Counted from the first letter of the stretch, positions 2,757 through 60,340 are shown. The stretch is 64,000 bases of DNA from Candidatus Beckwithbacteria bacterium (GCA_043803225.1 JAZDKF010000026.1:2250-66249); one strand, 5' to 3'. Translations and numbers: made by a program. The notes: a model not told the origin generated them from the letters alone.

Positions 2757-4757
2757 TTACTCCTTTAAACTCGTAATAACTTTTTTGGCAATAAATTCTG
2801 CACTTAATTTAAAGGCTTTCATTAATTCCCAAGATCCGCCGCTTTCCCCAAACTTATCCTCAACTCCGATCATTGCCATCTTTACCGGCTTGGATAAACA
2901 GGCTGTCATAATTACCCCGGCAACCAAATTACCCAAACCGCCTTTTTGGTGTTCTTCGGCGGTGACAATCAACTTGGTCTCTTGACCTGCTTTAATAATC
3001 GTCTTTTTATCTAAGGGTTTCAGTGTGTGTAAATTTATTACTCTGACTTTTATCTTAAACTCAGTTTCTAAAATCCAGGCCGCCCGCATTGCTTCGGCCA
3101 ATTCCGGTCCGCAGCTGATCAGAGTTACCTTTTCCTGCTCATTTTTATATTTAGACCCTAAAATTGTCTCAAACGCGTCAATAAAATTATTCTTAATTCC
3201 TCTAAACCTAATAACATTTGCCTGACCAAATACTAGAGGTGTTTTTTTGGTCGTTAAAATCGGCGTTGCTTCTCTGGCAAATCTGATATATTTTGGGCCC
3301 TTAACTTTAAACAGTAAATATTCTGTCAGTCTTTCTGTCTCAATTGAATCACACGGAACCGCTAAATTCATGTTCGGTAAAATTCCGACTACGGAAAACT
3401 CTTCTAAAGATTGGTGCGTCGCTCCGTCGGCACCGACCGAAACCCCGCCGTGCGCCCCGCCGAACATCACATTCAAATTGCCATAACAAATCGAAGTTCT
3501 CATCTGGTCAGCGTTTCTTTGCGAACAAAATACGCCATAAGTACCCAATACCGGCAATTTCCCTTCTCTGGCCAGTCCTCCGGCCACGGTAGTGGCGCTT
3601 TGTTCCGCAATTCCCATCGACAACCAGCGGTTTTTTCGGTCTTCAAATCCCTCATGAAATTTTGAAATCTGGATTGAATCAGAAATATCCAGACCCAAAC
3701 ACACTACTCGTTTATCGCCGCCTCGCTTCGCCAATGTTTTGCCAAAACCAAATCGGGTTGGTTCCATCTGCACTTTCATGGTTTCTCCATTGTTCCACCA
3801 ATAATCCCGTTTAAATTTCGGAACGCTTTTATTAATTAAAACCGTGGCCTTTTCCTGAAATTTTCTGGCTTTTTCTTTAAATTCAATCGGGTTTAACTCC
3901 TTATTAAGCTTTAATTCTTTCAGAGACTTTTCCAGTTCTTCATCATTTGGAGCCTTACCGTGCCACCCGGCCACATTTTCCATAAAGCTAACCCCTTTGC
4001 CTTTTATCGTTCTAAATACAATTGCCGCTGGTTTACCCTGAACTGCTTTTGCTTTTTCAAATGTGGTTAAAATCTCTTCCAGGTTATGGCCGTTAACCTT
4101 AAACACTTTAAATCCAAAACTAGTTAATTTTTCATTTAACCAGTCCAGTTTCATGACTGTTTCGGTATTGCCGTCAATCTGCAAATAATTTCTATCGATG
4201 CAAACAATTAAGTTATCTAAATTATAATGAGCCGCCTCCATCGCTGCTTCCCACATAGAACCTTCGGCCCACTCACCATCGCCGGTAATTGTATAAATTT
4301 TATGAGTTTGCTTGTTTAATTTAGCTGCTAAAGCCATTCCTACGGCTAAACTCAATCCTTGACCCAGTGATCCGGTGGAAACTTCCACACCCTTAACTTT
4401 TAACCAATGGGGATGACCTTGAAACTTAGAGCCAAATTTTCTAAGTAGTGCCGTCTCTTCAATCGGAAAGTATCCGGACATTCCTAAAGCGGTATACAAA
4501 GCCGGAGCCTTATGGCCGGCTGACCAAACCACTCTATCTCTATTTTTCCAATTAGGGTCTTTCGGATCGTGATGGAGCACAGACAAATATAAGGCTGCTG
4601 CAACATCCATCACTGACAATGATCCGCCGGAATGCCCGCTGCCGGCACAACTTATAGCTGTAAGACAATAACCCCTCATTCTGTTAGCTGTTTCCTTAAG
4701 TTTGCCTATCGAATACCGAACTCTTACCTTACCTGTCTTTGAATCTATGATTGCCAT
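2757..4757 (-). CDS. tkt: transketolase
   Basis: 666 aa. The N-terminal thiamine-diphosphate-binding motif GHSGGSLSVMDV is present, and the protein is full-length with the pyrimidine-binding and C-terminal domains. Confidence 0.9.
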   Translation of the reverse strand: MAIIDSKTGKVRVRYSIGKLKETANRMRGYCLTAISCAGSGHSGGSLSVMDVAAALYLSVLHHDPKDPNWKNRDRVVWSAGHKAPALYTALGMSGYFPIEETALLRKFGSKFQGHPHWLKVKGVEVSTGSLGQGLSLAVGMALAAKLNKQTHKIYTITGDGEWAEGSMWEAAMEAAHYNLDNLIVCIDRNYLQIDGNTETVMKLDWLNEKLTSFGFKVFKVNGHNLEEILTTFEKAKAVQGKPAAIVFRTIKGKGVSFMENVAGWHGKAPNDEELEKSLKELKLNKELNPIEFKEKARKFQEKATVLINKSVPKFKRDYWWNNGETMKVQMEPTRFGFGKTLAKRGGDKRVVCLGLDISDSIQISKFHEGFEDRKNRWLSMGIAEQSATTVAGGLAREGKLPVLGTYGVFCSQRNADQMRTSICYGNLNVMFGGAHGGVSVGADGATHQSLEEFSVVGILPNMNLAVPCDSIETERLTEYLLFKVKGPKYIRFAREATPILTTKKTPLVFGQANVIRFRGIKNNFIDAFETILGSKYKNEQEKVTLISCGPELAEAMRAAWILETEFKIKVRVINLHTLKPLDKKTIIKAGQETKLIVTAEEHQKGGLGNLVAGVIMTACLSKPVKMAMIGVEDKFGESGGSWELMKAFKLSAEFIAKKVITSLKE

Positions 4758-5510: not shown

Positions 5511-5570
5511 TGGTATCATCTATTCTACCAGAACTTTACCAATATCCTAAACCCTGCTATAACTTAAACC

Positions 5571-6122
5571 ATGAAATCACTTACTAATCGGGAACTGGCT
5601 CTCACGGCTGCTTTAGCCGCAATTTCTGCTGTCCTTCAGCTGATTCACTTCGGTTATCAATCACCTCAATGGGGGATGTGGCTTGATTTAGTGGCTGTCT
5701 CCTGGCTGATCGCTTTTTTTCTCTTTGGTTTTAAATCCGCCCTCTATGTTTCGCTTACCGGGGCTCTAGTTATTACTTTATTTGCCCCTGATACTTGGCT
5801 GGGCGCTTCAATGAAGTGGTTAGCTACAACTCCAATGTGGTTATCTCTTGCCTGGTTTTCAAACAAAAAATATTTAAAACTTAAAAATCTTATTCTGCCT
5901 CTGATTATTGGTTTAATCCTTCGCTCGTTGATCATTGTTCCAGTCAACTACTTTTATGCTATTCCTATCTGGACTGGCATGCCCGCAGCTGTAGCGATTA
6001 AAGTTATTCCCTGGTACATCATTGTCGGATTTAATACTATTCAGGGCCTTACCGATGTTCTCCTGGCTTGGACAATTGTTTTTCGCTTCCGTTTAAACCG
6101 TTTTGCCAGTGATCGATCATGA
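5571..6122 (+). CDS. ECF transporter S (substrate-capture) component, substrate unknown
   Basis: 183-aa polytopic membrane protein. It lies immediately upstream of, and overlaps, the EcfA and EcfT genes. Confidence 0.55.
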   Translation: MKSLTNRELALTAALAAISAVLQLIHFGYQSPQWGMWLDLVAVSWLIAFFLFGFKSALYVSLTGALVITLFAPDTWLGASMKWLATTPMWLSLAWFSNKKYLKLKNLILPLIIGLILRSLIIVPVNYFYAIPIWTGMPAAVAIKVIPWYIIVGFNTIQGLTDVLLAWTIVFRFRLNRFASDRS

Positions 6123-28924: not shown

Positions 28925-30860
28925 CATTCCGTTTGTCGGTCCGGCATACGCCTTGCGCCTTAATAAATTAAACATTTCCACTCCTCAAGATTTACTTAAT
29001 CACTACCCGGCCCGCTACCAAGATTTAACCCACTCAGCTATCGGTACTATTGTTTCCAGCCGCAATCTCTATACCCGCTCCGGCAAAACCCTGCAAAAAA
29101 TCATTATTCAAACCAAAACTTCCAATCAAGAACTGACTTTTTTTAATCAACCTTTTTTAATTAAAACCTTAACTCCCGGCACAAAAATTAGTTTTGTCGG
29201 TAATGATTATGAAATCATCAAAGGCCAAGAACTTATCCACACCAATCGTTTGGTGCCTGTCTACCCGGAAACCGCTGGCGTTTCCTCCAAATGGCTTCGT
29301 TCTCGCATCTATTATCTTTTAAATAATCAACCTTTACCTAATGATTGGCTGCCTCAATCTATTAAAACTAAGTACCAACTTATTAATTTAGATAAAGCCT
29401 TGCACCAAATCCACTTTCCCCAAAACCAAACCCAAATCGATCAGGCAACCAAGCGCCTGAGTTTCAATGAACTCTTTTTACTTCAACTCGAAGCTCGGGA
29501 AAGAAAAAAAGCCTGGCAAAAAAAATCTTTAAGCCATCAGCTTTCAGTTAACCAGGAAAAAGTTCTTAAGTTGATTGCTTCTCTGCCGTTTACTTTAACT
29601 GCCGGCCAAAACCGCTGCTTGAAAGAAATCTTGACTGATTTAAAAAAGCCTGTTCCTATGAATCGTTTGCTTCAGGGAGAAGTCGGCTCCGGTAAAACTG
29701 TTATTGCCGCCATCGCCGGCTACGTATCTTATCTTAACGGCCTGGATACGATCTTGATGGCCCCGACCGAGATATTAGCCAATCAGCACTTTCAGACTTT
29801 AAAGACTATTCTTAAACCAGTAGGCCTTAAAATAGAACTAATTACCGCTTCCCAAAAACCTAAAAAAAACCTCTCCGCTAATCTTTACGTTGGCACCCAC
29901 GCCCTTTTACATCGGCCTTTAAATTTATCTAAAGTTGGTCTAGTGGTAATTGATGAACAGCATCGATTTGGCGTGGCTCAACGGGCTCAACTAGTCGCCC
30001 AGTCCAAACTTATTCCTCATCTGCTAACCATGACCGCGACCCCGATTCCCCGAACCATTGCCCTGACTCTGTATTCTGATTTAGATCTGTCTGTTCTTGA
30101 TGAAATGCCTGAAGGCCGGCAAACCATTACTACTTGGGTTGTGCCGCAAACAAAACGCTTATCTGCCTATCATTGGATTGAATCGGAAATACTCGCTCAT
30201 AATTCTCAGGCATTTATCGTTTGTCCTTTAATTGAACCTTCAGAAAAAGAAGCTTTGCAGGATATAAAGGCCGTAACTCAAGAATTCAATCAATTAAACT
30301 CAATCTTTAATAAATTAAAATTGGGTTTAATTCATGGTAGGTTAAAAAATAAAGCTAAAAATGATCTCTTGGCTAAATTCCAGGCCAACAAGCTTAATAT
30401 TTTAGTCGCCACGCCGGTGATCGAAGTCGGCATTGATATTCCTAATGCTTCAATTATGGTCATTGAAAATGCTGATCGCTTTGGCCTCGCCCAACTCCAT
30501 CAGCTTCGAGGTCGAATTGGTAGAAATAATCAAAAATCATACTGTTTAATCTTTACTCAAAATTCAAACCCTAAAGTCTTGTCTAGATTAAAACAACTTG
30601 AAATTCTTAATCAAGGCCAAAAATTGGCTGAGTTGGATTTAAAGCTTCGCGGACCCGGTGATCTTTACGGTTTAAAACAACATGGATTCCTTCAATTAAA
30701 ACTCGCCAGTTTGACAGATCAAGCTTTAATCAGTCAAGTTAACCAGGCAGTCAGTAGCTTGAAAATATTACCAAAACAGCTTACAATTCACTTATATGCC
30801 TCCTCAACCAAAACGGAAAATATCATCCAGACGCCAAGGCAAACGCCGCGCCGCGATTAA
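28914..30860 (+). CDS. recG: ATP-dependent DNA helicase RecG (short form)
   Basis: SF2 helicase motifs GEVGSGKT and VIDEQHRFGV (DEQH), with an N-terminal wedge-like domain. Confidence 0.85.
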   Translation: MLSNIPFVGPAYALRLNKLNISTPQDLLNHYPARYQDLTHSAIGTIVSSRNLYTRSGKTLQKIIIQTKTSNQELTFFNQPFLIKTLTPGTKISFVGNDYEIIKGQELIHTNRLVPVYPETAGVSSKWLRSRIYYLLNNQPLPNDWLPQSIKTKYQLINLDKALHQIHFPQNQTQIDQATKRLSFNELFLLQLEARERKKAWQKKSLSHQLSVNQEKVLKLIASLPFTLTAGQNRCLKEILTDLKKPVPMNRLLQGEVGSGKTVIAAIAGYVSYLNGLDTILMAPTEILANQHFQTLKTILKPVGLKIELITASQKPKKNLSANLYVGTHALLHRPLNLSKVGLVVIDEQHRFGVAQRAQLVAQSKLIPHLLTMTATPIPRTIALTLYSDLDLSVLDEMPEGRQTITTWVVPQTKRLSAYHWIESEILAHNSQAFIVCPLIEPSEKEALQDIKAVTQEFNQLNSIFNKLKLGLIHGRLKNKAKNDLLAKFQANKLNILVATPVIEVGIDIPNASIMVIENADRFGLAQLHQLRGRIGRNNQKSYCLIFTQNSNPKVLSRLKQLEILNQGQKLAELDLKLRGPGDLYGLKQHGFLQLKLASLTDQALISQVNQAVSSLKILPKQLTIHLYASSTKTENIIQTPRQTPRRD

Positions 30861-44760: not shown

Positions 44761-48782
<4,022 letters not shown>

Positions 48783-48783
48783 T

Positions 48784-51336
48784 ATGAATATCGGTAAACT
48801 CCAATCTGTGGAAATCACCACGGAGATGAAAAAAAGTTATCTGGACTATGCCATGAGCGTTATTGTCGCCCGGGCTTTACCGGATATTCGGGATGGTCTT
48901 AAGCCAGTTCATCGCCGCATCCTCTACGCCATGAAAGAACAGGGAATTACTCATGCTTCGGCTTATAAAAAATCTGCCCGTGTGGTTGGGGAAGTTTTAG
49001 GTAAATACCATCCTCATGGCGATATGGCTGTTTATGATGCCATGGTCCGAATGGCCCAGGATTTTTCTCTACGTTACCCGCTAGTTGACGGCCATGGAAA
49101 TTTTGGTTCAGTGGATGGTGACTCACCTGCCGCCATGCGTTACACCGAAGTAAGAATGGCTAAAATTACCGATGAACTATTAAACGAACTTAATGAAGAT
49201 ACTGTAGATTTTATCGACAACTTCGATGGTTCACTCAAAGAGCCAACCGTCATGCCTGCTAAATTGCCAAACTTGCTCCTCATGGGGGCAGACGGTATCG
49301 CTGTGGGTATGGCCACTAAAATTCCCCCTCATAACTTAGGCGAAATTATTGATACCATTAAAGTTGTAATTAAAAAAACTAAAACTGTTACTCATGAAAA
49401 CCGGCCCAAAAACATTATTGACCCGGAATTAATTGACCCGTTAATTCTTGCCGGCAGTTTGGAATCAGAAATTACCTCTTCACAGCTAATGGCTACTCTG
49501 CCTGGTCCGGACTTTCCTACCGGCGGGATTATTTACGACACTACTAACATTGAACAAATGTATACCACCGGCAAAGGCAGTATTATTGTTCGGGGCAAAA
49601 CTAATATTGTTGAGGGGAAAAATAACTTTAAAATTCTGGTAACTGAACTTCCTTACCAGGTCAATAAATCCCGTCTGATTGCTAAAATTGCTGACCTGGC
49701 TAGGAATAAAAGGATTAACGGTATTAGAGACATTCGGGATGAGTCCGATCGAACTGGTCTGCAAATTGCCATCGAACTGAAAAAAGAAGCTAAGCCTAAA
49801 GCGGTTTTAAATAACCTTTTCAAACACACTGAACTTCAGACCAGTTTTCCCGCCAACTTAGTGGCCTTGGTCGATAATACCCCGCAGCTTTGCAACCTGC
49901 GCCAAATTCTCCTAGAATACTTGCGCCATCGTCAGCAGGTAGTCATCCGCCGGACTCAGTTTGAACTTAAAGCCGCCAAATTAAAAGCTCATATTTTAGA
50001 AGGCTTAAAAATTGCCTTAGATAACTTGGATGCAGTTATCGCCACTATTAAAAAATCCCAAGATGCTGATATCGCCAAACTCAACTTAATGAAAAAGTTT
50101 AAGTTGTCTGAAATTCAAGCCCAAGCTATTTTAGACATGCAGCTTCGCCGGCTTGCAGCTCTGGAAAGACAGAAAATCGAAGCTGAGTATGAAGCTATTC
50201 TTAAAACTATTAAAAACTTAACTGCTCTTTTGATCACTCCGGGAAAAATTATCGAAACTATCGGTCAAGAATTAACCGAACTAAAATCCAAGTATGCTGA
50301 CGCCCGCCGAACCAAGATTATTAAATCTTCTTTAAAACAATTTTCCGAAGAAGATCTCGAACCTGAAGAAGCCTGTTTAGTCACTATGACCGCTACTGGT
50401 TATATTAAACGTATGCCGCAAAATACCTACCGGTCCCAACGCCGCGGCGGTAAGGGTGTTACCGGCATGACTACTAAAGAAGAAGATGAAGTCACTCGAA
50501 TCTTTTCGGCTAATACCCATGACACTCTGTTGATTTTTACTGATCAAGGCCGGGTTTTCCGCCTTAAAGTCTTTGAAATCCCTCAGACTTCCCGCCAAGC
50601 TAAAGGCCAAGCCATAATTAACTTGATCAATATTAGCTCCAATGAAAAAATCATGTCTGTTCTTAACTTGGCAAAAGACGATCTGGAAAAAGGCTACCTG
50701 CTAATGGTTACTCATCAGGGAGTTATCAAGAAAACCGCCACCAGTCTTTACTCTAACATCCGCACCAACGGTATTATTGCCATTAAACTCGATCAAGATG
50801 ACCAGCTGGCCTGGGTTAAACAAACCTCTGGTAAAGATCATATCCTTTTAGTTTCCCATAATGGTATGTCTGTCCGCTTTAATGAAACTGACGCCCGCCC
50901 GATCGGCCGCTCTAGCCGCGGCATCCGCGGCATCCGCTTAAATCCTGACGATTATGTGGTCGGCATGGCTGTTTTTAATCCCGACCGTAAAAAAGTCAAA
51001 GGTAAACGCAAATTCTTCCAAGACCTTTTAGTCGTCATGGAAAAGGGTTTAGGTAAACGAACTGAAATTCACGAATATCCTTTGCAGAAACGCGGCGGTA
51101 AAGGCGTTAAAGTCGCCCAAATCACTGATAAAACCGGCAAGATTGTCTCGGCTCATATGGTCACTGAAAAAATTGAAACCCTGATCGTTACTTCAAAAAA
51201 AGCCCAAGTAATCAAACTTCCCTTAAAAAACATTAAACGGATTGGCCGTTCCACCCAAGGTGTTATCTTAATGAGATTCGCCAAAGCCGCTGACTCGGTT
51301 GCCGCCGTCGCTTTGCTGGAAAAACCAGAAGAATAG
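48784..51336 (+). CDS. gyrA: DNA gyrase subunit A
   Basis: The start was set to the ATG at 48784, immediately after the hppA stop. The active-site region [10 protein letters not shown] holds the catalytic Tyr, and the C-terminal beta-pinwheel repeats are present. Confidence 0.88.
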
Positions 51337-51338
51337 CT

Positions 51339-52301
51339 TTATTTATTTCCTGAGTGATACTTTTGATATAACTCTTTTAAATGCTGATTGGTTACATGAG
51401 TATAAATCTGCGTTGTCGCAATATTTTTATGTCCCAACATTTCCTGGACTGCCCGGATATCTGCTCCGGCCATTAACAAGTCGGTTGCATAGCTATGCCT
51501 TAAACCGTGCGGGGTAATCTTTACCGGAATCCTGGCCAAATTAATATATTTCTTTACAATCCTCTGCACTGATCGGGGAGTCAACCTCATTTTTTCACCT
51601 TGGCTGGCTTCGCTTTTGACTCCGCCGAAGTGGATAAACATCGGCCGGAAATCATCTTCCCGTTTGTTTAAATATCGTTTTAGCCACTCTTTAGCCCGTT
51701 TGCTTAAAAACACCACCCGCTGCCGGCCGCCTTTGCCGATCACTCCAAACTCGCCCCGGTTCAAATCGATCTCTTCCCGATTCAGCTTAACCAGTTCCGA
51801 AACCCGCAGTCCCGTTGAAAACAGCATCTCCAATACCGCCTTATCTCTTAACTGAGATAACTTGGAAATTCCTACGCTGCCTAAAAGTCTCTCTACTTGT
51901 TCTGTGTTTAAAAACTTTAATGATTTACTCTCGGTTTTTGGCAGTTCAATCTTTTCCGGTGCCAGGCAGCTAACATCCCGTTTAATTAAATACTTTAAAA
52001 ACGATCTCAGGCAAATCACATGATAAGCTTGGGTGGCTCGGCTTAGTGTTTCACCTCGTGGTGTTTGCATTCTGGCCAAAAACACCCGATACCTGGTCAC
52101 CATATCTAAACTTAACTTTCTTATCTGAAACTTTTCTTCCATTTGTTTAGTCCACTTGAGGAAACGGATCAAATAATGACGGTAATTTCTGACCGTCAAC
52201 CTTGAACAGTTGCGTTCAATTTCCAGATATTCTAAAAACTCCTCGATATACCTCATGAGCTCATCTTCGCTTTTTCTTAGTATTTTCTCATTAGCACTCA
52301 T
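51339..52301 (-). CDS. tyrosine site-specific recombinase, XerC/XerD family
   Basis: C-terminal catalytic motif HGLRHSYATDLLMAGADIRAVQEMLGHKNIATTQIYTHV (R..H..R..Y). Confidence 0.85.
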   Translation of the reverse strand: MSANEKILRKSEDELMRYIEEFLEYLEIERNCSRLTVRNYRHYLIRFLKWTKQMEEKFQIRKLSLDMVTRYRVFLARMQTPRGETLSRATQAYHVICLRSFLKYLIKRDVSCLAPEKIELPKTESKSLKFLNTEQVERLLGSVGISKLSQLRDKAVLEMLFSTGLRVSELVKLNREEIDLNRGEFGVIGKGGRQRVVFLSKRAKEWLKRYLNKREDDFRPMFIHFGGVKSEASQGEKMRLTPRSVQRIVKKYINLARIPVKITPHGLRHSYATDLLMAGADIRAVQEMLGHKNIATTQIYTHVTNQHLKELYQKYHSGNK

Positions 52302-53293
52302 TATCTTTACCTGCCAATATGTGGATAAAGAGGGGATAGCTTGCTATATCAACCCTTTTACCTCATTAATTTTTAGAAACTATAAGACAGCTTTGTGGAT
52401 AAATTTTTTATAATTTCCTAAGTAATTATCTAAATAGATTTTTCTGTTTATAGCATAACAGTTAGGCAACTAAGCGTCAATAATGTGCGACATTAACTTA
52501 AAAGGTCAGTTCCGCATGGATTACTAAAACTGAAGCCTGGTTTTATTGCCAAACTGACTATAACTTCTTAAATAGTCGCATTTTTCTTGAAGAAAACCTC
52601 ACCAAATCGCGTTTAAGGCCTTTATTTAATACGAGCTGATAAAAGTATAGCTTGATTTTGGAAAAAATAGGAAATAATAAATTTCCGCAGCTAAATGTTA
52701 TATTTATTAACAGTAGGTAAGTCTTTGATCCTTTCGGTCTAGTTTCGGAAAATTATAAAAACTGCTTAACTCAATAAATAGAGGATCTTTGCAAATAGTA
52801 ATTAGAATAAATTAAAAAAATTCCCAATCCACGGATAATTTTATAAAATGTACTAACTCGACCGCCTCCCCTTGGAACTCAGGAAGATAGTCGCAAAAGA
52901 TACATTGTGCGACATGATATCAACCCGAATAAAGCCCTAACCTACTTTAATCTCTTTACTCTTCTAGCAGGGAGCGGTTCACAACTGATATATCATCTTT
53001 ACTCATCTTTGCCTGGTTTCTAGCCTATCTAACCTAAACTTCAATCTAAATCTTTTTTTATACATCAACCCTTCCCTTAAGTTATCCACATATATATCAA
53101 ACCATTACAAAAAAAAGATTGATTTAGCAATCTAATTAAATGAATAACAGAAGAAAGCATCTGTTATAAATCATATTTCGTGAAAATATTTCAAAGATTT
53201 TGTGAAAACTTTCCTACTTATTATAGGATATAAAAACTATAGGACCTATAATCTTTTCCTCACTCCTCTACTTCTAAGCTTCTATCTAAAAAA
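52302..53293. promoter_or_regulatory. AT-rich ORF-free region with DnaA-box cluster (candidate oriC / DnaA-regulated region)
   Basis: Three perfect TTATCCACA 9-mers lie at 52319-52327 (-), 52393-52401 (-) and 53081-53089 (+), plus one imperfect box (TTATCCGTG, about 52827-52835). The region has several A/T tracts and no ORF of 60 aa or more on the expected strand. Confidence 0.4.
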
Positions 53294-54058
53294 TTACCAT
53301 TGGGCTAGAAAAAAGGTTAAGCCAAAAACTAAACCCCCAACCCATAAATACTCGCTAATCGTTTTTTTAAATAACCTTCCTGAAAGCCGGTTTTGCACCA
53401 GCCCTAACCCGACATACAAACCAGTGACTACAAATAAAGAAGCCATGGTAATTGTTACCGGCCAAAAACTGATCATAAACGCTAAACCTGCCAATCCCCA
53501 ACTTAGTCCCAAACTGTTATACCATTCTTCCTGTCTGACTTTTTCATCTAAATTTACACTCCAAAGTCCCTGTAAAATTAACGGCAGACTGGTCACTCCA
53601 ACGATTAACCCATTCCACCAGGGAGAAAATCGAAACGAAAACATTGTATCCCAGAGAAAAAAAGCCACAATTAAAGTCAATAAAAATCCGACCGCGTGGG
53701 CTGCTCGAAGCAGTTGGATAGTCCTGATTGCTGCTACTGAAAAAATATTTTCAGTTAAAAGCAAAGCGTACATACCGACTCCAAACACACTAAGAATCAC
53801 TAATCGGCTCAACAACCTGACCGGCAACAAAAAGTAAAATAAAGCCACCGCGACTGGATAAAAAACCGGCAGGATCAAAACCATAAACCACTCAATTCCT
53901 TTTAAATCGTCAAATAACGCCCAGGCAGATAAACCATAAGCCACTCCTGCCAAAAGCCCGATAGCCTGATATCTGACTTCAATCTCAATTGATTGAATTG
54001 CCAATAAACCAAAACTTAAAATCGTGGAAACAATAACTAACCTTAGCCTTTTTGTCAT
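53294..54058 (-). CDS. hypothetical polytopic membrane protein
   Basis: 254 aa with about eight hydrophobic helices. The overlapping plus-strand ORF 53202..53837 is rejected as antisense. Confidence 0.45.
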   Translation of the reverse strand: MTKRLRLVIVSTILSFGLLAIQSIEIEVRYQAIGLLAGVAYGLSAWALFDDLKGIEWFMVLILPVFYPVAVALFYFLLPVRLLSRLVILSVFGVGMYALLLTENIFSVAAIRTIQLLRAAHAVGFLLTLIVAFFLWDTMFSFRFSPWWNGLIVGVTSLPLILQGLWSVNLDEKVRQEEWYNSLGLSWGLAGLAFMISFWPVTITMASLFVVTGLYVGLGLVQNRLSGRLFKKTISEYLWVGGLVFGLTFFLAQW

Positions 54059-57902: not shown

Positions 57903-58340
57903 ATGCTCGCTGCATCACACGCTTTAATTGGCGCCGCAATTGCCACCACTGTTCCCGATCCTTGGCTGGGATTTCCCTTAGCAATCTTAAGTCATTTTCT
58001 CATTGACCTTTTCCCCCACTGGGATGCTCACACTCGTCACACCAACAGAACTAAACCGGTTATTATCGTTATTTCTCTGACTGACGCCTTTATTGGTTTT
58101 TTCCTGGGCTGGTTAATTTTCTCCTCTTCCGTGAACCAATCTTACTTATTTACGATGATGTTTATTTCCCAATTACCCGATTGGATTGAAGCTCCTTACC
58201 ATGTCTTTGATTGGCATTTTTTCCCATTTTCTTCCATTAAAAATCTCCAAAGCCGGCTCCACTTTAAACTTAACTGGCCCTGGGGATTATACTCTCAAGT
58301 TATTCTCGTAATTATTATCGTTCTTCTCGCTAGGCTCTAG
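57903..58340 (+). CDS. hypothetical membrane protein
   Basis: 145 aa with three or four TM helices and His-rich segments. Confidence 0.35.
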   Translation: MLAASHALIGAAIATTVPDPWLGFPLAILSHFLIDLFPHWDAHTRHTNRTKPVIIVISLTDAFIGFFLGWLIFSSSVNQSYLFTMMFISQLPDWIEAPYHVFDWHFFPFSSIKNLQSRLHFKLNWPWGLYSQVILVIIIVLLARL

Positions 58341-58887
58341 CCACATAACTAGCGTCACGCGTATCCACCACTATCTTTTCACCCTGCTTAATAAACAATG
58401 GCACTTTAATATTTAAGCCGTTTTCCAAAGTTGCTGGTTTATAAATATTCGCTACGCTATTGCCTTTTTCACCCGGATCTGTCTGCTTAACTGTTAAAGT
58501 TAACTTGGCCGGCAGTTCTAAAGCCAGCGCTGTTTCTTCCCAATATAAAACTTGGACTTCCACACCATCAGACAAGTACTGCTTTTGTTCTTTAATCAAC
58601 TCATTATCAATCTCTACTTGCTCATAACTGACCGGATCCATAAATATACTGTTATTAGCATCAGAATATAAATACTGCATCTTTTTCCGTTTCAGTTGAA
58701 TATCCGCCACACTATTCCCGCTACTGAAAGTTTTTACTGTTACTGATTGGGTAATTAAGTTTTTGACTCTGACTTTAATCGTCGCATTCCCCCGCCCCAT
58801 TTTGGTAAATTCATACTTTAAAACCAGGTAAGGCTGGCCGTCCAGTTCAAAAGCAACGCCGTTTCGTAACTGATTGACATTAAGCAT
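58330..58887 (-). CDS. efp: elongation factor P
   Basis: Contains NQLRNGVAFELDGQPYLVLKYEFTKMGRGNATIKVRVKNLITQ. Confidence 0.9.
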   Translation of the reverse strand: MLNVNQLRNGVAFELDGQPYLVLKYEFTKMGRGNATIKVRVKNLITQSVTVKTFSSGNSVADIQLKRKKMQYLYSDANNSIFMDPVSYEQVEIDNELIKEQKQYLSDGVEVQVLYWEETALALELPAKLTLTVKQTDPGEKGNSVANIYKPATLENGLNIKVPLFIKQGEKIVVDTRDASYVARA

Positions 58888-58932
58888 ATGGTAGAATTAT
58901 AGCAGGCTTGCCCTGAGGAGCAAGCAACGAAG

Positions 58933-59016
58933 GGCGCGGTGTTGAAACTGGTAGACAAGCATGACTCAAAATCATGTGGAGGCAACTCCATGTGGGTTCG
59001 ATTCCCTCCCGCGCCA
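58933..59016 (+). tRNA. tRNA-Leu(CAA)
   Basis: 84-nt type II tRNA. Acceptor GGCGCGG/CCGCGCC, anticodon stem CAUGA/UCAUG with loop CUCAAAA, variable arm GGAG..CUCC, T-loop UUCGAUU. There is one U-U mismatch in the T-stem. Confidence 0.75.
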
Positions 59017-59023
59017 CAAAAGT

Positions 59024-60340
59024 CTATTCTCTTCTCTTTTTATCCACCCCGTAAAACTTGATTCGATCTCCTCTGAAACGCAGGTTAATTGTGGCCAATG
59101 GTCCGTTTCTATGTTTGGCTAATGTTAGCTTACAGTTTTCCAAATCGTTTTCATCTTCATGAAATAAAAACATGACCACATCGGCATCCTGTTCGATCCC
59201 GCCTGACTCTCTTAAATCAGCCAATTGTGGTTTAGGATTGCCTCGGTGCTCCACTGCCCGGGAAAGCTGAGATAAGGCTAAAACCGGAATTTTTAACTCT
59301 CTGGCTAAGTTTTTCAGCCCCATAGAAACTTCAGATATTTCCTGAACCCGGTTTTCTAAATTACGCGAATGGGCCAATTGTAAATAATCAACCACAATTA
59401 ACTTAACATTGTTTTCCACCTGCAGCCGTCTGGCTTTAGTCCGCATCTCCATTATCGACATTCCCGGTGTGTCATCAACATACAAAGGCGCTTCGGCCAA
59501 CTCTCCCATGGCATCAGATAGTTTGGTAAAATCCTGTTCGTTCAACTTCCCGGTTTTTAACTTCCAGGCATCAATATCTGCCTGAGATACCAATAGTCTG
59601 TCAACTAACTCCTCTTGGCTCATCTCTAAGGAGAAAAACCCTACCGGAATCTTGTACTTTACCGAAGCCTGTTGAGCTATATTTAAAGCCAAACTGGTCT
59701 TCCCCATTCCCGGCCTGGCCGCCAAAATAATTAAATTGCTTTGTTGTAATCCTGCCAACACATTATCTAAATCATAAAAGCCTGTCGGTACTCCCCTCAT
59801 CCCTCCGGCTTGCTTATGCAACTCGTCTAACCGGTCAAACGACTCGGCTAAAGCATCTTTAATATGAATAAAGTTTCTTGACAAATGCTGTTGGGATAAA
59901 GAAAAAATTCCTTTTTCTGCCTTGTCTAAGAGTTTATCTAAAGGCGCATTCTCGTCAAACGAGTCTTCCACTAACCGAGACGCTTGTGCAATCAACTCTC
60001 TTTTTGTGCCTAAATTTCTAATTATCTTAGCGTAGTTTAAAGCATGGGCGCTGGTCGGCACCCGATTAACTAATTCCGACAGATAAGCCGCTCCGCCGAT
60101 TTTCTTTAAAGTTTTTTTACTTCTTAATTTTTCCGCCACTGTCACCACATCTACTGGCTCCCGCTCCTCATACAAATCTCTGATTGCCTCAAAAATTAAT
60201 CCGTTTCTCTCCTGATAAAAATGTTCCCGTCTTAAAAACTCAGCTACCTCTACCACCGCATCTTTATCAATCAGTAATGCTCCTAATACTGACTGTTCCG
60301 CTTCGTCGCTATGGGGCGGGATTCGCATTGTTTTAGCCAT
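59024..60340 (-). CDS. dnaB: replicative DNA helicase DnaB
   Basis: The N-terminal sequence IPPHSDEAEQSVLGALLID is a DnaB signature. Walker A motif GMGKT sits in a RecA-like C-domain. Confidence 0.9.
   Translation of the reverse strand: MAKTMRIPPHSDEAEQSVLGALLIDKDAVVEVAEFLRREHFYQERNGLIFEAIRDLYEEREPVDVVTVAEKLRSKKTLKKIGGAAYLSELVNRVPTSAHALNYAKIIRNLGTKRELIAQASRLVEDSFDENAPLDKLLDKAEKGIFSLSQQHLSRNFIHIKDALAESFDRLDELHKQAGGMRGVPTGFYDLDNVLAGLQQSNLIILAARPGMGKTSLALNIAQQASVKYKIPVGFFSLEMSQEELVDRLLVSQADIDAWKLKTGKLNEQDFTKLSDAMGELAEAPLYVDDTPGMSIMEMRTKARRLQVENNVKLIVVDYLQLAHSRNLENRVQEISEVSMGLKNLARELKIPVLALSQLSRAVEHRGNPKPQLADLRESGGIEQDADVVMFLFHEDENDLENCKLTLAKHRNGPLATINLRFRGDRIKFYGVDKKRRE

Follow-up and report, generated by a model that had tools for sequence, protein, structure and literature searches.

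Where does replication start, and where does it end, on a chromosome whose GC skew has no switch? In the complete genomes from the order UBA1400 described by Kadnikov et al. 2020 (PMC7143001), namely Ch65 (CP047901), Collierbacteria (MFAS01000001) and Beckwithbacteria (CP011210), the cumulative skew decreases continuously and has no extremum; the authors proposed an adjacent origin and terminus or unidirectional theta replication, and located neither. A follow-up to this skew finding was not found in the literature searched. We approached the question through a 64,000-nucleotide stretch of DNA (hereafter, the window) from Candidatus Beckwithbacteria, a lineage of the Microgenomates within the candidate phyla radiation (CPR). 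A 992-bp gap without genes, at positions 52302-53293, separates a xer recombinase gene from a gene for a DUF5656 membrane protein, and an earlier sequence-only reading had proposed it as the replication origin, oriC, on the strength of its DnaA boxes. We found that the gap also holds a dif-like core site of the kind on which Xer recombinases act. In our assessment the chances are about even that 52302-53293 is a combined origin and dimer-resolution locus, consistent with unidirectional replication. The oriC proposal remains the leading reading, and does so only as an origin co-located with dif.

DnaA boxes and AT-rich DNA in the gap

An oriC is expected to carry at least three boxes matching TTATNCACA, and the gap has three perfect TTATCCACA boxes within 771 bp. 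The sequence-only reading had found these boxes on their correct strands, with coordinates that were each one base too low. Box L1 lies at 52320-52328 on the minus strand, 19-27 nt upstream of the xer ATG, and box L2 at 52394-52402 on the same strand, in the predicted xer leader. Box R, on the plus strand at 53082-53090, is 169 nt away from the core site; it lies 204 nt past the stop codon of DUF5656, downstream of the gene's 3' end, and so does not belong to a promoter. The full set of three is found again in the Beckwithbacteria relatives L001 and L321 (L numbers denote related loci throughout), and L324 keeps two of them perfectly, its copy of L2 having one mismatch. Elsewhere in the window TTATCCACA occurs only once more, inside a gene at 29233. 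The boxes are non-random, as had been claimed: 0.42 copies are expected per 64-kb window, and none of 100 shuffles reached four. A relaxed pattern, TTWTNCACA, has a density of 3.0 per kb in the gap versus 0.09 per kb window-wide.

An additional, imperfect box had been proposed. The sequence concerned, CACGGATAA at 52830-52838, carries three mismatches at positions 7-9, the critical ACA end, and is not a credible box. The A/T tracts that had been described are real, with four of the window's 15 least stable 60-mers falling in the gap. The third least stable 60-mer of the 64 kb (52399-52458, 85% A+T) abuts box L2 and is a candidate unwinding element.

When up to two mismatches are allowed, boxes are densest at 58800-60000 (15 per kb-sized window), over dnaB and a tRNA-Leu gene, and include TTATCCACC at 59040. 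There is no perfect box there, and this density is probably due to chance.

A dif-like core site and a single xer gene

The sequence-only reading had overlooked the dif-like Xer core, the xer promoter and the terminus-like orientation of the local genes. The core, GTCGCAAAA GATACA TTGTGCGAC, occupies 52890-52913 on the plus strand (28 bp with its flanks, 52888-52915). It is a near-palindrome with the consensus GTCGYAAAA-N6-TTGTRCGAC, in which conserved arms enclose a variable 6-bp centre, and together with partly symmetric AT flanks it has an 11-6-11 architecture. The site is unique in the window, and its reverse strand matches it with two mismatches. With no more than two mismatches it is present in 20 of 20 syntenic gaps; the arms are invariant apart from the Y/R position, and the centres include GATACA, GTATTA, GGTATA, TGTATA and others. 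At the Y/R position the two arms vary independently (C-G in 11 gaps, T.G in 5, C.A in 2 and T-A in 2). This independence suggests that the palindrome is bound by a protein and is not an RNA stem, and an RNA hairpin was rejected for this reason.

Beyond these gaps, the core is carried by at least 120 metagenome contigs in many gene contexts and by at least 120 IMG/VR contigs. Among the matches listed, 119 of 120 metagenome loci have a single copy per contig. At least 25 different centres occur in 132 distinct sequences, a set that was retrieved with the arm pattern itself. The best-conserved block of the gap, 52882-52947 on the plus strand, comprises the core and continues to ...CAACCCGAATAAAGCCCTAACCT, with 90-91% identity to L321 and L324 by blastn. 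Within it, the ~30 nt to the right of the core (52917-52947, ATATCAACCCGAATAAAGCCCTAACCT) match the core itself in conservation among the Beckwithbacteria relatives. In L160, three dif-like sites stand in tandem within ~150 nt, ~130 nt upstream of the L160 site.

As expected of a dif site, inverted arms surround a variable centre and a cognate Xer is encoded next door. The xer gene (51339-52301, minus strand) encodes a XerC/XerD/XerA-like tyrosine recombinase with the Pfam Phage_integrase domain and a SAM-like N-domain. Its NCBIfam scores for XerC (254 bits) and XerD (249 bits) are both below cutoff, whereas its XerA_Arch score of 235.9 passes the cutoff of 220; the best PDB match is XerD (1a0p, 2.6e-42). 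These matches mark the gene adjoining the gap as a true member of the Xer family; no second Xer-like gene occurs in the window. The locus is also found on contigs (L321) whose Xer falls into one 90% cluster with this protein.

A predicted sigma-70-type promoter directed toward xer (TTGACG, 17 nt, TATGCT) lies at 52452-52480 on the minus strand, upstream of L1 and L2, which places the left two boxes in the xer leader; these boxes could regulate xer, whatever their other role. Directly upstream of the -35 element is a lone Xer-arm half-site (52481-52493, plus strand; TGTGCGAC at 52484-52491, then AT), consisting of the right palindrome arm only, with a 'centre' unlike that of the full site. Of the 20 syntenic loci, 9 have the pattern TTGAC[AGT]-17/18-TAnnnT next to the half-site, and its distance upstream of xer is 83-316 nt. 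The half-site was rejected as a prophage scar, because its centre differs and because it is conserved together with the xer -35 element.

Integrase-less prophages at the core site

Among the IMG/VR matches listed, 23 chromosomal contigs from a related CPR lineage, in which the site lies in a murG/ftsQ context, carry the site followed on its right by small genes and a Zot-family ATPase (the Zot protein of L268 scores 22.7 on Pfam PF05707, cutoff 20.3). All 10 contigs that are long enough have a hybrid site in the same orientation 3.1-5.9 kb downstream (5.1-5.9 kb in nine), made up of a foreign left arm, an identical centre and TTGTGCGAC. The DNA past the hybrid site equals the DNA past the empty site: L239 is identical to L151 in translation (tblastx, 100% over 561 nt), and there is a match between L205 and L135. 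A Xer-like gene lies near the site in 1 of 120 IMG/VR contigs, again among the matches listed. Because integrase-less Zot prophages sit exactly at the site with attL/attR structure, the core is, on this comparative evidence, a Xer-type recombination target that bears the integration signature of filamentous phages using a host Xer. Use of the core as attB by integrase-less elements, which leaves a full and a hybrid site and is expected of dif, was thus found in relatives of the murG/ftsQ lineage and not in this window. Filamentous phages that integrate at dif via the host Xer have been described, including XacF1 (PMC5666396) and UPphi (PMC7307601).

Several observations concern the mobile elements themselves. 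Zot elements lacking an integrase stand next to murG/ftsQ in this CPR-like lineage in L239, L205, L244, L265, L269, L301, L304, L307 and L314, and swapped flanks between Zot contigs suggest tandem arrays of different elements. L116 consists of three head-to-tail copies of a 2,398-bp unit with the palindrome in each (772-795, 3170-3193 and 5568-5591), and may be a small circular plasmid or phage that was assembled as a concatemer and uses the site for multimer resolution. In 35 viral contigs (L203, L219, L240, L253, L318 and ~30 other IMG/VR loci) the palindrome lies ~0.7 kb from a large-terminase gene (PHROG 38); these palindromes have AACAGGGGT / ACCCCTGTT repeats on either side, possibly arm-type or accessory sites of tailed phages that use the same target. 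The 839-aa terminase-like open reading frame (ORF) of L219 (671-3187) has an apparent insert after its ATPase/nuclease part (CFVAGTHVLT ... VHNC) with an intein-like look.

DnaA boxes and other motifs track the site across lineages

The order gyrA, xer, gap, DUF5656, yebC is kept in at least 20 genomes of Beckwith-, Levy-, Gottesman- and other Microgenomates, with 0.6-6 kb between xer and DUF5656. The larger gaps hold inserted ORFs, and those in L004, L007, L012, L023 and L025 look miscellaneous and non-mobile, judged by eye from their translations. Box R, in the form TT[AT]TCCACA (TTATCCACA or TTTTCCACA), is perfect at the same place and in the same orientation in 16 of 20 syntenic Microgenomates gaps and has one mismatch in 3 more. 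Both the position and the boxes are therefore conserved in relatives, as expected of an oriC.

The association extends to other gene contexts. In the metagenome loci, the density of TT[AT]TCCACA is tenfold higher within 600 bp of the site than elsewhere (0.317 versus 0.031 per kb), and a box lies close to the site in 40 of the 120 loci among the matches listed, spread over at least three gene contexts. In Microgenomates the box follows the site by 183-225 nt; in the murG/ftsQ lineage it precedes the site by 170-340 nt, again with CGTGAAAA-type motifs; and in a third group it follows the site by 11-26 nt. In both the Microgenomates and the murG/ftsQ lineage the box comes before the site when the G-rich strand is followed, despite the inverted polarity of the site.

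Further motifs recur in the syntenic gaps. At the left end, the xer start is followed by the two minus-strand DnaA boxes (in close relatives), GTCAAnnnTTGTGCGAC, a variable spacer and a CT-rich patch with the palindrome. A plus-strand TT[A/T]TCCACA comes ~170-270 nt past the palindrome in most loci and up to ~950 nt past it in a few, and the right end holds two CTATATCA, two CGTGAAAA 21-23 nt apart, TATAGG/CCTATA motifs and a CT tract. We compared 8-mer counts in the gaps with those in the pooled whole loci (372 kb, gaps included), subtracting each word's gap occurrences from the latter. CTATATCA occurs 22 times in gaps versus 5 in the pooled loci, TGTGCGAC 28 versus 2, CGTGAAAA 25 versus 1 and TATCCACA 13 versus 1. 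The window itself has the TATATCAA(A/C)CC repeat at 53093-53106 on the plus strand (other copies at 52345, 52917 and 53061), a pair of ATTTYGTGAAAA motifs 22 nt apart at 53175-53208 (plus strand; the CGTGAAAA pair is spaced by 21-23 nt in 15 loci) and TATAGGA / CCTATAAT motifs in both orientations at 53222-53252. A pyrimidine (CT) tract at 53253-53275 on the plus strand, which recurs in most loci, ends the module. Some motifs change order between lineages, which argues for protein-binding sites rather than one RNA.

CGTGAAAA, CTATATCA and TATAGGA fall outside the box consensus and were ruled out as weak DnaA boxes. CGTGAAAA resembles only a half-site of parS, and with no match to parS at up to two mismatches in the window, a parS locus was rejected as well. 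A tmRNA resume codon, prompted by AUAGUCGCA, was excluded since the frames give no plausible tag and there is no tRNA-like end. A literature search by motif sequence returned unrelated primers only. In L228 and L279, a near-canonical parS (TGTTTCACGTGAAAAT) follows the palindrome by ~20 nt and joins the motifs CCCTGTT and CGTGAAAA, which recur near the site elsewhere.

GC skew keeps its sign across the locus

The GC-skew switch that had been expected of the gap is absent: the skew is negative on both sides, and the cumulative skew falls monotonically across the window. With 16.85% G and 23.16% C, the window has a skew of -0.158, in agreement with the published value for Beckwithbacteria (CP011210: 20.66 and 28.26, skew -0.155; PMC7143001). 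Expressed on the plus strand, the skew at third codon positions (GC3 skew) ranges from -0.28 to -0.43 for the four genes to the left of the gap and from -0.27 to -0.36 for the four nearest to it on the right, irrespective of the gene's own strand, and it is negative in 58 of 62 long ORFs of the window whatever their strand. Its sign is kept across the gap in 19 syntenic Microgenomates loci (-0.57 and -0.59 in L019), gene by gene in L321 and L324, and likewise across the site in the murG/ftsQ lineage (L140, L172 and L181). In other lineages, the skew across the site is confounded by coding-strand bias and short flanks.

Taken alone, a skew whose sign does not change across the gap refutes a bidirectional origin, and it does the same for a classical terminus, at which dif would coincide with a switch; there is none at the core site. 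Because the complete genomes of the lineage have no switch anywhere (PMC7143001), the skew test cannot decide the matter.

Gene content of the window

The window belongs to Candidatus Beckwithbacteria. Its GyrA is 79% identical to that of the Beckwithbacteria metagenome-assembled genome (MAG) PCSQ01 (L001), and its Xer is 100% identical to an NCBI Beckwithbacteria MAG protein, P0001, from an 86.8-kb contig on which a 305-aa version was called. Exact-protein look-ups of three window proteins and P0001 gave no match.

To the left of the gap, holB (DNA polymerase III delta'-type), gyrB (44797-46761), an H+-pyrophosphatase gene and gyrA (48757-51336) all lie on the plus strand and are followed by xer on the minus strand. 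To its right, DUF5656 (53294-54058, syntenic in the related loci, its 3' end bounding the gap), yebC, a LytR_C gene, a pseudouridine synthase gene, lspA, a dksA-like gene, lgt, efp and dnaB (59024-60340) are all on the minus strand. Protein family matches bear out the neighbourhood described by the sequence-only reading, with gyrB and gyrA upstream, dnaB downstream and a Xer recombinase adjoining; its statement that dnaA is not in the window is also correct.

The gap is the largest intergenic interval of the window, and the next two largest contain tRNAs. That this 992-bp interval has no credible ORF, as had been claimed, is borne out by ORF calling, tblastx and the gene calls of relatives. 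Two mechanical ORFs that touch it (52210-52413 and 53202-53837, both plus strand) overlap xer or DUF5656. No coding signal was detected in the gap, since tblastx against three relatives gives matches spread over all six frames, and a small conserved ORF was ruled out on this ground. Independent gene calls place no genes in the gap of related contigs. Neither the gathering scan of the window nor a permissive scan of the gap gave an Rfam match in the gap.

Two features lie outside the gap. The H+-pyrophosphatase gene (46758-48782; Pfam H_PPase, 835 bits) is inserted between gyrB and gyrA, with an overlap of a few bases at each end, an arrangement common to L001, L007, L011, L321 and L324 and not to all relatives. 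A 145-aa ORF without a family match (57903-58340, plus strand) runs over the start of lgt and the end of efp, which are on the opposite strand, and is probably real, as a 145-147-aa gene is called at the same place in L321 and L324.

Discussion

A dif site normally marks the end of replication and DnaA boxes its start, and the two usually lie on opposite sides of the chromosome. Here, the DnaA boxes and the dif-like core are 170-570 bp apart. With boxes and core this close, in genomes whose skew puts origin and terminus together if skew reports replication, a combined locus is the most economical explanation. What survives of the oriC proposal is a set of boxes that are real, non-random, conserved and abutted by AT-rich DNA; the expected skew switch is absent but uninformative here, the two boxes in the xer leader may simply regulate xer, and the terminus-like gene orientation goes against it.

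In the model that we propose, the boxes flanking the core (two on the left, one on the right), together with the AT-rich DNA and the lineage-wide motifs, would form the origin or part of it. DnaA would bind the boxes and open the adjacent AT-rich DNA, from which the origin would fire. Replication would be essentially one-way, a direction suggested by one G-rich and one C-rich strand all round the chromosome. If the G-rich strand leads, the fork would exit toward xer and gyrA and come back through dnaB, yebC and DUF5656, so that replication would end at its starting place. The dif-type core at 52890-52913 would serve the adjoining single Xer, which would bind there and resolve chromosome dimers in the last-replicated DNA. 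The left 200 bp would double as the xer promoter, and the Xer arm by the -35 element and the leader boxes would couple xer expression to Xer and DnaA occupancy.

A number of observations weigh against a combined locus. On the side of the origin, near-consensus boxes show no excess in the gap, which has three consensus boxes only, and most lineages conserve just one. Boxes L1 and L2 sit in the xer leader and may merely regulate xer. The AT-rich stretch at 52399-52458 is weakly conserved, being shortened in L001 and GC-richer in L321, and no dnaA was found in the window or in any Microgenomates locus examined. Nor does the skew, having no switch, give positive evidence of initiation. Microgenomates and the murG/ftsQ lineage carry the box on opposite sides of the core. 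Gene orientation resembles that of a terminus, with 39 of 62 window ORFs pointing toward the locus and flanking genes converging on the site in most lineages, and there is no enrichment of genes on the G-rich strand (29 of 62 ORFs). On the side of dif, the core matches the E. coli site at 16 of 28 positions and that of B. subtilis at 15 of 28, which is not above chance: 70 other 28-mers of the window score at least 16 against the E. coli sequence. A canonical dif by sequence was rejected on this ground, and membership of the core in the dif class is a matter of architecture, context and use, not of sequence.

The best surviving alternative, which we regard as rather unlikely, is that the locus is a terminus with dif only, that the origin lies elsewhere, and that something other than replication direction accounts for the monotonic skew. 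The boxes would then be regulatory or architectural: the left pair would control xer, and box R with the motifs would be accessory sequences of the Xer synapse, comparable to the ArgR/PepA/ArcA sites at cer and psi, or a DnaA sink. This account draws on the convergence of flanking genes in the window and most lineages, on the position of the left boxes between the xer promoter and the start codon, on the single widely conserved box and on the lack of gene enrichment on the G-rich strand, which would be odd for a leading strand. In most syntenic gaps, moreover, the box module is found on one side of the core at a distance of 170-500 bp, which is typical of accessory sequences. However, a terminus should show a plus-to-minus switch, whereas the strong skew (GC3 up to ~0.6) keeps its sign in every locus, and we know of no other mechanism for a genome-wide one-strand bias. 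Furthermore, the core is asymmetric, and the side on which the module lies differs between the two lineages, whereas accessory sequences at cer and psi have a fixed side, and DnaA is not, to our knowledge, a Xer accessory factor.

A second alternative, raised already by the sequence-only reading, is a datA- or DARS-like locus for DnaA titration or reactivation, or nothing more than a xer promoter under DnaA control, in either case without a part in initiation or termination. datA and DARS are functionally defined, IHF-dependent DnaA-box clusters of E. coli and close relatives only, with no sequence definition outside enterobacteria, and the likeness here consists in the presence of a box cluster alone. 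Three boxes of high-affinity type without a nearby dnaA, two of them in the xer leader, are compatible with such a role. We nevertheless consider it improbable, since it leaves unexplained the core site, the other repeated motifs and the tracking of the core by boxes in unrelated gene contexts, and since the widely conserved box is the one outside a promoter. Least probable is an unannotated structured RNA whose promoter and conserved helices would be the motifs: motif orientation is conserved, the palindrome can fold as a hairpin in which GTCGTA variants would give a G.U pair, and CCCCT...AGGGG hairpins lie nearby in some lineages, but the arms include C.A combinations, motif order is shuffled with TATAGG in both orientations, the DNA between motifs is unalignable even at 79% GyrA identity (half-site to core, 166 nt versus 406 nt), prophage attL/attR junctions fall exactly at the site, Rfam gives only tRNAs at gathering or E <=1 in the window and 15 related loci, and ARAGORN finds no tmRNA in the window.

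The proposed combined locus shares features with several known systems. Like the DnaA-dependent origins of E. coli and B. subtilis, and the bipartite origin of Helicobacter pylori, it has TTATCCACA boxes in both orientations, AT-rich DNA abutting a box, two box groups with a spacer and a conserved non-coding position among replication genes (gyrBA, dnaB, holB). Unlike those origins, it has few boxes and neither a skew switch nor an adjacent dnaA or dnaN; its box groups flank a recombination site, and its genes converge rather than diverge. As in the single-recombinase Xer modules (XerS/difSL of streptococci, XerH/difH of Helicobacter and archaeal XerA/dif), one Xer gene stands beside a near-palindromic core with inverted arms, a 6-bp centre and A/T runs as inner arm bases, and the protein passes only the XerA cutoff. 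In contrast to these modules, the arms GTCGYAAAA / TTGTRCGAC are new, the site is away from any skew switch, the xer promoter has an additional conserved half-site, and there are DnaA boxes at 170-570 bp.

The Zot elements of ~3-6 kb without an integrase in the related CPR lineage resemble filamentous phages of the IMEX type (integrative mobile elements exploiting Xer), such as CTXphi, XacF1 (PMC5666396) and UPphi (PMC7307601), in that a regenerated full site borders them on one side and a hybrid site on the opposite one, and in forming some apparent tandem arrays. Unlike the situation in those phages, the elements were found in another lineage and not in this window, and the recombinase assigned to them is a putative one. 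Finally, ColE1 unites its ori and cer, an origin of unidirectional theta replication and a Xer resolution site, within a kilobase, with the same start and end. ColE1-type plasmids are a few kilobases long, RNA II-primed and independent of DnaA boxes, whereas the replicon here would be a chromosome of ~1 Mb.

More broadly, we put forward, tentatively and with less confidence than the assignment of the locus itself, the hypothesis that Beckwithbacteria-type Microgenomates and at least one further CPR lineage, that of the murG/ftsQ context, start and end replication in the same ~1-kb locus: a ~1-Mb chromosome would be copied by a single one-way fork, with a Xer/dif site within the origin and filamentous prophages inserting there. 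A locus joining origin and dif, a CPR dif-type consensus and prophages exploiting it were not found described in the literature searched. Origins and dif sites themselves are already known kinds of element.

Some Microgenomates genomes with one C-rich strand all the way round have been known since 2020, with origin and terminus unlocated (PMC7143001), and the present locus supplies a concrete coordinate. Independently of the origin question, GTCGYAAAA-N6-TTGTRCGAC is a candidate CPR dif consensus that can be searched for in thousands of fragmentary genomes. Such a search could reveal dif-like sites, and with them candidate termini, in CPR genomes, and the pattern also picks out integrase-less filamentous prophages, along with other mobile elements for which the site is a target. 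If the unidirectional hypothesis is true, iRep and peak-to-trough ratio (PTR) estimates, which assume bidirectional replication, would be invalid for these lineages.

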